A stretch of DNA of 64,000 nucleotides from positions 10,600 to 74,599 of the forward strand of contig DXJV01000001.1 in assembly GCA_019056785.1 (NCBI GenBank). Direction: 5' to 3'. Numbering within the stretch: position 1 is the first letter of the stretch; the number at the start of each line of letters is the position of its first letter. Source of the DNA: Candidatus Heimdallarchaeota archaeon (GTDB taxonomy: Archaea > Asgardarchaeota > Heimdallarchaeia > JABLTI01). The translations under genes and the position numbers were made by a program. This document shows positions 27,137 to 28,789 of the stretch, piece by piece. Below the pieces are notes generated by a model. The model worked only from the letters and a program-made list of their open reading frames with translations. It was not told the DNA's origin and did no database searches.

Positions 27137-28789
27137 TTGGAGAAATTAATATTGAACAAGAAAGTGGTTTTTTCAATTGCAGTAATTGCTTTGATGCTAT
27201 TTCTTCCTATGTTCTCAGGGCAAGCAGTAGTCACACCTGACGATTTAAATGATTCTTCCCTTATAACTTCAGCAGGTGACGGTTCGACGGAGATCGCCCA
27301 ACCAGATGGAACATATGTTGTGAATGGGACAACAATTGAGGTAAATAGCATTAATAGCGATGAAACAGAAGTAATCTTAAACAACACTTACAAAGTACAT
27401 ATAACCCAAGCACCAAATGTGTTTCAAGCAGACTTCTATGAAATGTCCGGTGGTGGAGGACCACATATCGAAGCTGACACTCGAATATTGGGCGTCACAG
27501 TCGCAACATATGAGACAAATACAACAGTATCGGTCTATATCTCATCTTTTGGAGAAATAAAAATCATCAATAAGGGTCCTGACACGTGGATGGTTGAACT
27601 TCCAGATCTCGTCGTTCATTATGATGGTACAGTAAATTCACTTGTGATATTAACACCAGACTATGTGATAATTGTTGACGAACATCTCATAACGATAAAT
27701 TCTCCTTCCTATATGCCTATTGCTTTGGAAAAGTATGAAGAGCGTTTCTGGAGAATTCATGTTTTGGCCGGAATAATGAATGTCACATATTTCCCAACAC
27801 GTTATTTTGCTCCCAATGACAATCTCACTGTTACAGACGATCTTGGTAACGTTATTTTTGGTCCTGCAAAACCTGTGCCTTTTAACATCGTTAATCCAAC
27901 AGGTGTAACCTTCACATTTCAAGATGAAGTGTTGGTTATTTCATACCTCTATTGGACCGTTTCGTTCTATCCTGATTTCATCGTTCTTCAATACTTTGAC
28001 ATAGCAATTACTTTATACTTCGACTATTATGGCATCCTTGAGCGAGTTATAATTCTTATTCTAGACTTTACCTTTGTTTTCTACTACATCAATGTCCTCA
28101 TTGAACTTTATTTTGTCATCATTTACTATGACTTCGAAATAAAATTCTATTACACACAGGTCGTAATAGTATACCAAACGATAGAAATAGTGATCGTTTT
28201 TATCTCAATTACATTGTGGGAAATAACTATCATCTGGCATATTGATGTCTGGCTCATTCAAATTGTCATCCTTATCCAACTAAATGTTGTCATCGTTCAA
28301 CCTGTGAGACTTATCTTTATCCCCGTAATAGTCCCAATATTCATTCCAATTGTATATTATGTCCCTGTCTTTATCACAAACATAATTCAAGTGTACATAC
28401 CCTATGCTGCTTTACAAGTCTATATTGATGTCTATTCTCAAGAATTACGAAAACCAACGCACACTATTCAATACTTTGTCTATGATCAAACTGGTGCGCC
28501 AATCAATGATGCAACAGTAACAGTAGCTTACAATGGCACTGTTTATCCTGCGGCCTTCATTGCAAATGGTATTTATGAAGTCAACCTTCCAGCATCTGAC
28601 AAGAAAGAAACAATCACTGTTACAGCTATGAAAGATTGGTATCCTGATGGCATTCTCACTTATGACTTGAATGTTACATGGGTAACTGAGGTCGTTACAC
28701 AAAATACCCCCTTATACATCCTTCCAATAATCGCCTCGCTTGCATTCTTGGCAGTTGGTACAACCATTATCCGGAAAAGAAAGAGGTAA
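27137..28789 (+). CDS. Cell-surface protein with an extremely hydrophobic beta-rich central tract, Ig-like domain and C-terminal anchor
   Basis: Signal peptide; I/V/Y/F-dominated tract; YDQTGAPINDATVTV..NGIYEV domain; TPLYILP-TM-RKRKR. Confidence 0.8.
   Translation: MEKLILNKKVVFSIAVIALMLFLPMFSGQAVVTPDDLNDSSLITSAGDGSTEIAQPDGTYVVNGTTIEVNSINSDETEVILNNTYKVHITQAPNVFQADFYEMSGGGGPHIEADTRILGVTVATYETNTTVSVYISSFGEIKIINKGPDTWMVELPDLVVHYDGTVNSLVILTPDYVIIVDEHLITINSPSYMPIALEKYEERFWRIHVLAGIMNVTYFPTRYFAPNDNLTVTDDLGNVIFGPAKPVPFNIVNPTGVTFTFQDEVLVISYLYWTVSFYPDFIVLQYFDIAITLYFDYYGILERVIILILDFTFVFYYINVLIELYFVIIYYDFEIKFYYTQVVIVYQTIEIVIVFISITLWEITIIWHIDVWLIQIVILIQLNVVIVQPVRLIFIPVIVPIFIPIVYYVPVFITNIIQVYIPYAALQVYIDVYSQELRKPTHTIQYFVYDQTGAPINDATVTVAYNGTVYPAAFIANGIYEVNLPASDKKETITVTAMKDWYPDGILTYDLNVTWVTEVVTQNTPLYILPIIASLAFLAVGTTIIRKRKR

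Follow-up and report, generated by a model that had tools for sequence, protein, structure and literature searches.

The window, i.e., the whole stretch of 64,000 nucleotides analyzed here, carries the gene for a 550-amino-acid surface protein with an exceptionally hydrophobic tract (27902-28420; residues 256 to 428), the core of which is predicted to form a ribbon of short beta-hairpins, in a family that, judged from its sequences, is unannotated and nearly confined to Asgard archaea. Our preferred reading, which we hold tentatively and rate at a little short of an even chance, is that of a lineage-specific Asgard surface glycoprotein whose hairpin ribbon serves as a self-association core holding the variable N-terminal domains.

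The initial annotation had singled out about 170 residues as ultra-hydrophobic and scarce in Ala and Gly, which the composition bears out: I/V/L/F/Y/W/M make up 68.8% of residues 256 to 428 versus 39.8% of the remaining protein, and Ala and Gly total 5 (I38 V27 Y19 F16 L15 W4; G2 A3 K1 R2 D7 E6). The short strings it had read from this stretch (FYPD, FIVLQYFD, IAITLYFD, IIYYD, FEIKFYYT, QVVIVYQT, and IWHID) are each found in the translation, and the Pro-periodic run that it reported, IPVIVPIFIPIVYYVPV, lies at residues 395 to 411. When all 1768 ORFs of at least 200 amino acids from the same genome were compared, the best 170-residue window of the tract ranked first in I/V/L/F/Y/W/M content (0.706; 99th percentile, 0.578) and again first in the beta-formers I/V/Y/F/W/T (0.671; runner-up, 0.529), with an Ala-plus-Gly fraction of 0.024 versus about 0.09 to 0.15 in the next-ranked helical membrane proteins. 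The composition of the tract is far outside chance for its own proteome. So extreme a composition could in principle betray a mis-assembly, a misread frame, or a gene in decay, an explanation to which we give hardly any credence. The frame is the sole one open across the region, all alternative frames being closed over the tract, and the gene is present with zero indels in independent metagenome contigs, one of which covers it entirely, so that an assembly artifact is excluded. Strain variants consist of substitutions only, the sampled ones mainly synonymous or of the V/I type, and pN is far below pS. Conservation, moreover, spans more than 35 sequences from several GTDB families, with invariant residues, and by this comparison of sequences an artifact appears effectively refuted. 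The gene is present once in its own genome and starts with TTG, although the true start may lie a few codons away.

Full-length homologues number 17, at 35 to 67% identity, and bear the names Heimdallarchaeota or Asgard; two alignments, A1 and A2, were used, the latter comprising 33 sequences. The family splits into two or more subfamilies, whose N-terminal domains are unrelated but which share a common layout of signal peptide, variable domain, tract, Ig-like domain, Ser/Thr stalk, TM anchor, and Lys/Arg tail (Table 1). In subfamily B, a longer, unrelated domain stands in place of the N-domain while the tract is retained, and more distant members likewise swap the N-domain and keep the tract. 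The tract is the best-conserved portion of the family, with a column entropy of 1.02 versus 1.73 in the N-domain (the highest value) and, between syntenic orthologues whose synonymous sites are saturated, a pN of 0.33 to 0.40 versus 0.52 to 0.59. Invariant or near-invariant residues of its core include D310, T312, Y316, E323, VIIY327-330, E334, K336, Y338, E350, W361, and W372. The family is represented by one or two copies per genome and has a patchy distribution, occurring in 7 of the 10 genomes of its own genus and in only a few other families. The present gene has cellular neighbors, not phage or type VI secretion (T6SS) genes; no partner gene is conserved beside it, synteny is limited to close relatives, and paralogues and distant members have no common neighbors.

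Table 1. Features of the gene and its product, with nucleotide positions in the window
Feature	Residues	Position	Strand	Remarks
Whole gene	1-550	27137..28789	+	550-aa type-I membrane-anchored surface protein; ORF list and translation
Signal peptide	1-30	27137..27226	+	KK n-region, hydrophobic core, LP.FSG.A motif conserved (alignment A1)
Variable N-terminal ectodomain	31-255	27227..27901	+	beta-rich, sequon-rich, fast-evolving
Tract core	257-381	27905..28279	+	about 13 predicted short strands (5-10 aa), mostly 2-residue turns
E334-I335-K336	334-336	28136..28144	+	charged pair, mid-strand
Pro-periodic hydrophobic segment	388-428	28298..28420	+	alignments A1 and A2; modeled at pLDDT 45-67
Ig-like (macroglobulin/Big_1/CarboxypepD_reg-like) beta-sandwich	429-515	28421..28681	+	
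Thr-rich stalk, short	516-526	28682..28714	+	
TM anchor and cytoplasmic RKRKR tail	527-545 and 546-550	28715..28786	+	C-terminal

The view that the tract belongs to an Asgard surface protein holds up well when the parts of the protein are considered one by one. The hydrophobic window of the signal peptide (residues 10 to 28) is comparable to the C-terminal anchor, and cleavage is likely to occur after its conserved motif. The N-domain, in which AF2 predicts strands at pLDDT 60 to 80 with beta-meander or barrel-like matches at Z of about 8, holds 2.5 N-X-S/T sequons per 100 amino acids versus 1.1 expected; sequons reach about twice the expectation both here and in the Ig-plus-linker region and are essentially lacking in the tract. 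Pro is conserved at positions 389, 396, 400, 404, 410, and 422 of the Pro-periodic segment (alignments A1 and A2), the counterpart of which in subfamily B consists of P-[VI]-F-I repeats followed by PVPTPVP. The Ig-like domain is modeled at pLDDT above 90 and matches the C3/C5 MG4 domain, an MtrC domain, and SlaB (8qox_B) in VIA at Z of about 10 and an rmsd of 2.0 to 2.6, and its Pfam matches are all below threshold (PF13620, E 3e-4; Big_1; Invasin_D3). The stalk measures 14 to 31 amino acids in subfamily A and 22 to 62 in subfamily B, where it is rich in Ser/Thr and sequons. It is followed in 33 of 33 members by a hydrophobic 18-mer and then four to six Lys/Arg, and AF2 draws a helix at 529 to 549 of the present protein. 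Signal peptide, enriched flank sequons, and a stalk with TM anchor and basic tail would together place the flanks of the tract outside the cell, and the tract itself is presumably extracellular as well. A general role as a structural component of the Asgard envelope, as had been proposed, is weakened by the patchy distribution. Signal peptide, N-glycosylated ectodomain, Thr/Ser-rich stalk, and hydrophobic anchor with basic residues are also the architecture of the haloarchaeal S-layer glycoprotein, and all of its elements (with a sequon-rich ectodomain) have their counterparts here; we know of no hydrophobic beta tract in proteins of that type. A PGF-CTERM-type sorting signal was not detected with the NCBIfam CTERM models, nor was an archaeosortase (PF09721) found in the genome, which is 82.5% complete.

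Neither of the two outcomes that the initial annotation had named as speaking against it, ordinary TM helices confidently predicted or a match to a characterized family, materialized. Beyond the family's own members, an exhaustive profile search of 1.84 billion proteins retrieved nothing but proteins with Ig domains, a search of PDB sequences with the family profile gave zero matches at E up to 1, and Pfam and NCBIfam on the 33 members yielded only subthreshold Ig-type matches and none to the tract. With the whole protein as query, a feature search of the Atlas gave a lead at 0.76; the tract brought no usable match.

The tract had been read as beta-strands with a turn every 8 to 9 residues instead of TM helices, in agreement with its periodicity, the position of indels at turns, and the meander drawn by AF2. 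The family-averaged hydropathy power peaks at 64 and 48 between 160 and 180 degrees and does not exceed 18 between 95 and 110 degrees, and hydropathy autocorrelation is negative at lags 1, 3, and 4 and positive at lag 2 in 31 of the 33 sequences. We judged beta-periodicity by this autocorrelation and a proteome control rather than by the single-sequence global Fourier test, which discriminates poorly (even a 7-TM control showed no alpha peak). Among the 40 most hydrophobic windows of the genome, the tract ranks first in beta-type alternation, and its helix-type score lies about 2.7 standard deviations below those of the genome's other most hydrophobic windows. Its composition is dominated by the strongest beta-formers, and all 12 indel blocks between residues 256 and 390 fall at or beside turns of the model. 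Within residues 324 to 357, strand-plus-turn units measure about 8 residues; the autocorrelation peaks at lags 7, 9, 16, and 18 and not strictly at 8, 16, and 24, so that hairpins fit. The claim that both strand faces are apolar stands approximately, with 60% and 68% aliphatic residues by a simple hairpin-register rule that uses no coordinates and is itself approximate, and a weak but consistent period-2 signal is found all the same.

Structure prediction points the same way. With the 33-sequence alignment A2, AF2 predicts an all-beta meander of hairpins, open in overall shape and not made of ordinary TM helices, with a pLDDT of 74 to 92 in the tract core (80 to 92 over residues 257 to 380) and strands of 5 to 7 residues in 9 of 13 cases. 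The confident model of the tract depends on these 33 sequences only: a run on the whole protein with 17 sequences gave a pLDDT of 58.6 and a pTM of 0.42, with residues 310 to 425 mostly at 26 to 55. In VIA, the tract model matched the CPAP/SAS-4 G-box (Z 9.9 and 9.7), OspA (Z 9.1), and MORN proteins (Z 8.1 to 8.6), alignments to such single-layer sheets covering 133 to 151 residues at an rmsd of 4.3 to 5.7; repeating-beta-groove/AsmA-like lipid-transfer proteins were absent from the top VIA matches. The G-box (TCP10 domain; 4bxp and 4by2), OspA (6kk9 and 1osp), and MORN structures (6t4r and 7jr9) share with the model a run of next-neighbor hairpins with tight turns, and the G-box self-associates into fibrils. 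Their faces, however, are polar or charged and solvent exposed, in contrast to the largely aliphatic faces of the tract, and the Pfam families TCP10_C, MORN, and OspA have zero matches among the 33 members; at such Z values, the resemblance may reflect a mere common arrangement. Membership in the RHS/YD-repeat or MORN families, suggested by the Y-D and Y-T turns, was rejected for want of any Pfam signal. Foldseek matches of the whole model in PDB and BFVD (TM 0.15 to 0.32) were driven by the Ig-like domain, and a fold search of the ESM Atlas with the AF2 model retrieved Ig-domain clusters only. Monomer models of obligate trimers (Phage_base_V spikes and YadA stalks) are structural neighbors of the tract as modeled in the ESM Atlas, at TM 0.43 to 0.53, which we take as a lead only.

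Among the options listed in the initial annotation (oligomeric beta-helix or spike, amyloid-like fiber, lipid groove, and membrane-inserted beta structure), the models single out none, as they show a hairpin-meander ribbon only. Since both of its sheet faces are apolar, the tract must be buried. Given that these faces are 60 to 68% aliphatic and that the N-domain evolves fast and is swapped while the tract is kept, the cover should come from outside the protein's own domains, and, with both faces apolar and no conserved intramolecular partner, binding to itself is the most likely route of burial. In the arrangement that we propose, the C-terminal TM helix would anchor the protein, with the entire body outside the cell, and residues 257 to 381 would form about 13 antiparallel hairpin strands, amounting to a covalently linked cross-beta sheet some 6 to 7 nm long, which the Pro-periodic segment would connect to the Ig-like domain. 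This ribbon would be buried by binding other copies of itself, either stacked face-to-face or intertwined as a multichain beta-prism or beta-helix, and as an assembly core it would hold the variable, glycosylated N-domains at the cell surface, presumably in a coat or in adhesion. The patchiness within the genus, the one or two copies, and the near lack of Cys for cross-linking are points against such self-association.

Archaeal sheath (SH) proteins, which might offer a precedent in that they assemble via an amyloid-like beta core, are known from Methanospirillum, Methanothrix, ANME-1, and Thermoprotei and have not been reported from Asgard archaea (PMC10593813, PMC11576556). They combine a signal peptide with an amyloid-like antiparallel beta core and cap/Ig domains and assemble through the core, in which two six-stranded sheets are joined by beta-arches and the hydrophobic and aromatic packing is completed only by neighboring subunits; they were surveyed as secreted, with no membrane anchor described, have disulfides, and reach up to 40 copies per genome (PMC10593813, PMC11576556). 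The Asgard family likewise has a signal peptide and an Ig-like domain, but it differs in its C-terminal TM anchor, its near absence of Cys, and its one or two copies, and the model of its tract is a single meander of about 13 strands with two-residue hairpin turns. No SH-related sequence turned up in the profile search of 1.84 billion proteins, which started from the Asgard family, and SH chains were absent from the top matches of the fold searches, the libraries of which may lack them.

Alternatively, the tract could lie within the cell's own membrane, as two to four packed TM helices or as a novel inserted beta-sheet or oligomeric beta-barrel, which we regard as unlikely. The helical version needs an even number of helices, so that both flanks remain outside. 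Extreme hydrophobicity on both faces would suit a lipid environment, as would the lack of sequons in the tract, the clustering of Tyr/Trp at strand ends in the manner of a membrane aromatic belt, and a stalk of merely about 14 amino acids in the protein itself. Several 19-residue windows, moreover, match the bona fide anchor in apolarity: by a rough reckoning on a translocon hydrophobicity scale, two or three of those within the tract come to between -2.8 and +1.4 kcal/mol, as against -0.1 for the signal peptide of this protein and +0.6 for its anchor, and the Sec machinery might integrate such windows into the membrane instead of exporting them. AF2 with 17 sequences also drew a helix at 356 to 385, albeit at low confidence, and porins appear among the VIA matches of the meander (Z 8.1 to 8.3; rmsd 5 to 6). 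Yet the periodicity is of the beta type and the helix type is missing, indels of 2 to 5 amino acids recur every 8 to 20 residues and interrupt each putative 20-residue helix, four helices within 300 to 390 would leave loops of just 1 to 3 residues, segment 391 to 411 contains 4 Pro, and subfamily A lacks Lys/Arg-rich "inside" loops. Near-invariant charges (R303, E334, K336, E350, and E362) occupy the segment centers, and the subfamily B module sits on a glycosylation-type stalk of 22 to 62 amino acids. As for a membrane-spanning sheet, outer-membrane beta-barrels such as porins and OmpA-type proteins do share the next-neighbor antiparallel meander and the aromatics near strand ends, but their strands have at least 9 residues and alternate between apolar lipid-facing and polar lumen-facing positions, whereas most strands predicted for the tract are too short for a bilayer, both faces are apolar, and charges lie in the center. 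To our knowledge, Asgard cells have a single membrane and neither an outer membrane nor Bam or other beta-barrel insertion machinery. The short strands and central charges argue against a lipid-spanning sheet, and so weigh on the membrane-inserted beta structure that had been offered as one option.

Another possibility, which seems to us rather unlikely, is that the tract is displayed to an external hydrophobic partner: lipids, for which it would serve as a transfer groove or binding sheet, hydrophobic substrates or mineral surfaces, or else a partner cell's membrane. The N-domain would then be a cap or recognition head, and contact with a partner membrane would be of an adhesion or fusion type. 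The succession of variable head, conserved hydrophobic module, membrane-proximal Ig-like domain, stalk, and TM anchor is compatible with such a role, as are the rapid evolution of the N-domain, expected of a recognition or exposed surface, the stand-alone gene, and the reliance of cultured Asgard archaea on syntrophic partners. Lipid-transfer grooves, however, pair an apolar concave face with a polar one, no Pfam or NCBIfam match to AsmA, Chorein, LptA-type, or fusogen families was obtained (which also leaves membership among lipid-transfer grooves without sequence support), and the Foldseek matches to class II fusion proteins stay at noise level (TM 0.15 to 0.17). A bare apolar sheet of about 130 residues would, in addition, aggregate if unshielded, which leads back to self-association. 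A beta module that resides in or inserts into a bilayer, either as an oligomeric lipid-facing sheet or barrel or as a greasy beta-prism that is unmasked by its head and engages a partner-cell membrane, appears improbable. We are also doubtful that the protein is an ordinary monomer, in which the tract would be the core layer of a multilayer beta structure wrapped by its own N-terminal and Ig-like domains and by glycans. The ectodomain as a whole is about 50% I/V/L/F/Y/W/M, which is high yet conceivable for an all-beta protein from an AT-rich genome, and the predicted meander of the N-domain is continuous with the tract, a structural match extending across both (residues 95 to 355; Z 8.9). A fixed cover, though, would not be expected to be the least conserved part of the protein or to be exchanged in subfamily B and distant members, and AF2 packs the N-domain on the tract without confidence (pTM 0.42). 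Homology to the intertwined triple-stranded beta-helix spikes of phages and T6SS (gp5, gpV, and VgrG), finally, is very improbable. These spikes and the YadA stalks are obligate homo-oligomers with short strands, tight turns, and an apolar interior, their single chains also look like meander ribbons in monomer models, the units in 324 to 357 approach 8 residues, and Phage_base_V and Phage_GPD clusters are among the Atlas neighbors (TM 0.43 to 0.50). The gp5 octad repeat, however, reads VxGxxxxx, and its Gly is missing from the tract (2 Gly in 173 residues), the outward-facing positions of which are apolar too; the lag peaks are hairpin-like, AF2 draws hairpins, and the gene neighborhood is cellular. 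PF04717 and PF05954 remained unmatched at E up to 1, a survey of all 33 members with an E cutoff of 0.01 was likewise negative for both, and membership among gp5/VgrG spikes is unsupported by sequence.

We know of no description of the composition of the amorphous protein coat of cultured Asgard archaea, and models of eukaryogenesis give a central place to the surface contacts between these archaea and their partner cells. The family offers a concrete, conserved, Asgard-restricted surface protein that is amenable to expression, localization, and imaging. Biophysically, it is unusual for a secreted domain of about 130 residues to be apolar on either side of its beta-sheet, and two questions follow: how such a domain passes through Sec without being integrated, and by what it is buried once outside. 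Whichever way they are answered, the archaeal envelope would gain a new type of module, be it a self-assembling beta core of great stability or a beta structure that acts on membranes, and the tract would define a domain family missing from current databases. Should the partner-membrane reading be true, the archaeal lineage closest to eukaryotes would possess a device for contacts of an adhesion or fusion type; should the bilayer reading be true, a beta-module would be lodged in a bilayer of a single-membrane organism that lacks machinery for assembling beta-barrels. In cultured Asgard archaea, a Heimdallarchaeial strain among them, the coat is amorphous, with no S-layer or other lattice (10.1101/2025.11.06.686947).

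Two further observations concern variation within the tract. The charged pair at positions 334 and 336 is E-x-K in 21 sequences, whereas the other 12 have K-x-E; such a reciprocal exchange between i and i+2 would fit side chains that both project from the same face of a beta-strand, and it probably goes back to a single evolutionary event. The distant members also have K-x-E at this pair, and their tract shifts toward W/Y/F/I, with W accounting for 30 of 181 residues.

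The tract occupies a single ORF of the translated window, no other frame being open across it. It comprises 38 I, 27 V, 19 Y, 16 F, 15 L, and 4 W, with only 2 Gly, 3 Ala, 3 Lys plus Arg, and 13 Asp plus Glu, and I/V/L/F/Y/W/M account for 68.8% of it versus 39.8% of the remainder of the protein. When the best 170-aa window was taken from each of 1768 translated ORFs of at least 200 aa from the 2.87-Mb genome, this protein ranked first in apolar residues (0.706; 99th percentile, 0.578) and, by a wide margin, in β-formers (I/V/Y/F/W/T; 0.671, next 0.529). Next in rank comes one spurious low-complexity frame, followed by ordinary helical membrane proteins, whose level of Ala plus Gly is three to six times that of this protein. 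Composition counts and genome rank thus bear out the initial annotation, which had described about 170 residues dominated by I/V/Y/F/L/W and poor in Ala and Gly; each sequence string it quoted is found in the translated ORF, as is its Pro-periodic run (residues 395 to 411). The gene is present, with substitutions only, in contigs of independent sediment and vent metagenomes, one of which covers it entirely and gap-free; tract differences in the sampled contigs are synonymous, V/I, F/I, or L/M, plus one Y/C. The ultra-hydrophobic tract is therefore confirmed as a real observation. An artifact, a reading to which we assign next to no probability, was rejected as excluded by conservation.

The genome's runner-up "hydrophobic" ORF, an F/L/C/R-rich frame of low complexity, is apparently a spurious or antisense reading and not a gene. 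The longest ORF at 27137 begins with TTG; the homologue P0009 has the same L-E-x-K-I-L N-terminal extension and most homologues start with MKKK about 5 codons later, so that the true start codon may lie downstream.

A word-indexed search returned 17 full-length relatives (35 to 67% identity), whose named sources are MAGs of Heimdallarchaeota or the "Asgard group"; Pfam domains are absent from all 17. In their alignment, mean column entropy is 1.02 for the tract, 1.73 for the variable N-domain (aa 31 to 255), and 0.87 for the Ig-like domain (aa 429 to 515), and most invariant residues fall in the tract (D310, T312, Y316, VIIY327-330, E334, K336, Y338, E350, W361, W372, and R391, together with prolines 396, 400, 410, and 422). 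When 1.84 billion cluster representatives were searched exhaustively with the family profile, just 44 proteins matched, revealing, alongside these close relatives (subfamily A), a subfamily B (434 to 693 aa) that shares with A only the tract, Ig-like domain, stalk, and anchor, its N-terminal domain being different and longer. Six-frame searching of 400 genomes from the phylum recovered the complete module from 7 of 10 genomes in the same genus. Two other families of the class had it in 4 of 12 and in 1 of 2 genomes, and weaker full-module matches came from four genomes of two further families; the remaining matches were to the Ig-like domain only. As far as seen, the domain family appears restricted to Asgard archaea. 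The source genome holds one copy and other genomes one or two, and no conserved neighbor gene was found past genus-level synteny.

Same-genus orthologues lie in one 10-gene syntenic block yet share merely 36 to 39% protein identity. Synonymous sites are saturated between them, and nonsynonymous differences per site (pN) are 0.33 to 0.40 in the tract versus 0.52 to 0.59 in the N-domain, which is itself near saturation. The protein is a very fast-evolving surface protein within an otherwise conserved gene neighborhood. Some genomes of the genus carry, at an unrelated locus, a second, divergent paralogue that resembles the homologues P0021/P0022 and has a DK[VI]V motif, as in subfamily B, linking subfamilies A and B.

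Coordinates of the ORF, its features, and related loci (L, loci in other genomes; G, genome; C, contig)
Feature	Location	Strand	Remark
ORF of the source protein	window 27137-28789	+	550 aa
Hydrophobic tract	window 27902-28420	+	residues 256-428
P-L-[PY]-I-[VI]-P motif	window 28682-28730	+	immediately N-terminal of TM anchor
Same-genus orthologue	L019 6737-8353	-	
Same-genus orthologue	L020 5534-7165	+	
Same-genus orthologue	L021 6730-8337	-	
Second paralogue	G090 C14:338739-339635 and C61:24759-25643 (L019, L025); also L026		
Trp/Tyr-rich distant member	L016 836-2482	-	
Trp/Tyr-rich distant member	L015 1255-2940	-	
Trp/Tyr-rich distant member	L017 868-2580	-	
Runner-up "hydrophobic" ORF	C65 from 6682	-	276 aa

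All members share one architecture: a signal peptide with a conserved LP.FSG.A at its end, a variable β-rich domain, the hydrophobic tract, the Ig-like domain, a Thr/Ser-rich stalk often with sequons (median length, 20 aa in subfamily A and 42 aa in B), a hydrophobic 18-mer, and four to six Lys/Arg. The Ig-like domain (AlphaFold2 pLDDT above 90) has subthreshold matches to CarboxypepD_reg, Big_1, and Invasin_D3, and its model matches macroglobulin MG4 domains, an MtrC domain, and SlaB at a Z of about 10. The density of N-X-S/T sequons per 100 aa is 2.5 for the N-domain and 1.7 for the Ig-plus-linker region, about twice the compositional expectation, and essentially none were counted in the tract; both flanks are therefore most likely extracellular. 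Together with the signal peptide, stalk, and anchor, this upholds the proposed surface location. No archaeosortase was found in the 82.5%-complete source genome, and CTERM models gave no match to the protein. The P-L-[PY]-I-[VI]-P motif, conserved in subfamily A, is not among the recognized CTERM sorting signals; it could serve in lineage-specific processing or introduce a kink.

The claim that the tract does not form TM α-helices is supported by β-type alternation, indel placement, and predicted strands. The family-averaged hydropathy spectrum has its maxima at 160 and 180 degrees (power, 64 and 48), with power of at most 18 at 95 to 110 degrees, and autocorrelation at lags 1 to 4 is -0.13, +0.08, -0.14, and -0.07. 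Of 33 sequences, 31 show the β-type sign pattern, in which lag 1 is below zero and lag 2 is above zero and larger than lags 3 and 4. When the tract is compared with the 39 other 134-aa windows of highest hydrophobicity in the genome, almost all from helical membrane proteins, its β-type alternation is the strongest (0.25 versus -0.05 ± 0.10), and its helix-type score lies about 2.7 SD below theirs. Column statistics give runs of alternating positions with a phase flip every 6 to 11 residues. All 12 indel blocks in residues 256 to 390 fall at, or at most 1 to 2 residues from, a predicted turn, and since indels recur at 8- to 20-residue spacing, any 20-residue helix would be interrupted. At positions 334/336, 21 sequences have E-x-K and the other 12 have K-x-E, with zero exceptions, which fits β structure because only a strand puts residues i and i+2 on one face; the swap is probably a single evolutionary event and hence modest evidence. 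Longer-lag autocorrelation peaks (7, 9, 16, and 18) fit mirror-symmetric hairpins and not a strict octad repeat.

From the 17-sequence whole-protein alignment, AlphaFold2 gave no usable tract fold (mean pLDDT, 58.6), with a low-confidence helix at 356 to 385; in this weaker model the N-domain is meander-like too. The 33-sequence alignment of the module common to both subfamilies (mean pLDDT, 80.7) yielded 13 consecutive strands of 5 to 10 residues within 257 to 381 (pLDDT 74 to 92), joined mostly by 2-residue turns, with a confidently modeled Ig-like domain and anchor helix and a low-confidence Pro-periodic segment (pLDDT 45 to 67). This monomer check, suggested at the outset, is thus all-strand over 257 to 381 and not confident TM helices, and the tract is predicted from 33 sequences to be a ribbon of about 13 short β-strands. 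By a simple hairpin-register rule applied to the model, both faces are 60 to 68% aliphatic and 11 to 13% Tyr/Trp, so that their supposed apolarity stands approximately, although weak β-type alternation is present. In an all-against-all structural search of 48,161 PDB chains, the tract portion of the model matched long single-layer hairpin-meander sheets, namely, the G-boxes of CPAP (4bxp_A; Z 9.9, rmsd 5.1, 134 residues aligned) and SAS-4 (4by2_A; 9.7, 4.7, 133), OspA (6kk9_O; 9.1, 5.4, 144), MORN proteins (8.1 to 8.6, 4.3 to 5.7, 144 to 151), and porins (8.1 to 8.3, 5.1 to 6.1, 144 to 156), which may share only a common arrangement with it. Several structural neighbors of the ESM Atlas tract model (TM 0.43 to 0.53) are monomer models of phage baseplate spikes, MORN proteins, and YadA-type stalks; as several are obligate trimers, this likeness is just a lead.

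A ribbon apolar on both faces could not stand alone in water and would need burial. Among four burial modes we rank self-association first, tentatively and at somewhat below even odds: ribbons would stack on one another or intertwine into a multichain prism. The N-domain, the sole candidate for an intramolecular cover, evolves fastest and is replaced by an unrelated domain while the tract is conserved, which favors self-association and makes a monomeric multilayer fold, wrapped by the protein's own domains, the least likely of the four. Self-association is further favored by subfamily B, in which a glycosylation-type stalk keeps the module at a distance from the membrane, and by the precedent of archaeal sheath proteins, in which a signal peptide and cap or Ig domains accompany an amyloid-like, antiparallel β core completed by neighboring subunits (PMC10593813, PMC11576556).

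The tract might instead be embedded in the cell's own membrane, since a translocon scale puts some 19-aa windows on a par with the genuine anchor in apolarity and the Sec machinery might therefore integrate them. This is unlikely, at about one chance in five, given the β-type signals, the indel pattern, four prolines within 396 to 410, near-invariant charges at strand centers, the absence of Lys/Arg-rich inside loops in subfamily A, and predicted strands too short for bilayer crossing; with both flanks outside, it would also need an even number of crossings. Slightly less likely is that the tract binds lipid, hydrophobic surfaces, or the membrane of a partner cell: a variable head and a conserved hydrophobic module, carried on an Ig-like domain, a stalk, and an anchor, would be consistent with such a role, but no lipid-transfer or fusogen family was detected and neither face of the sheet offers a polar back. 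Homology to gp5/VgrG spikes is very improbable, as it fails on Pfam, the Gly repeat is missing, and the periodicity does not fit.

Searches of Pfam, NCBIfam, the PDB, and the 1.84 billion representatives found no described family for the tract. Its function is probably closest to the amyloid-like assembly cores of archaeal sheath proteins, from which the family differs in topology, membrane anchoring, Cys content, and copy number; its predicted shape is closest to single-layer β-sheets, from which the ribbon differs in being apolar on both faces. The protein would then be a surface protein with a proposed self-assembling β core, built on an undescribed domain family.

In subfamily B, the Pro-periodic segment consists of P-[VI]-F-I repeats and then PVPTPVP. 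Directly upstream, a Lys-rich stretch (e.g., IKIKIKIVVKIIK) is found in some members, and P0034 carries the insertion PWWPWWPWWWWP where the segment begins, just before the Pro-rich part. The most distant members retain the architecture and the K-x-E motif with a W/Y/F/I-rich tract. In other families of the phylum, this reaches 30 W and 23 Y per 181 residues, to our knowledge among the most aromatic natural sequences met so far, and these members may form a third subfamily.
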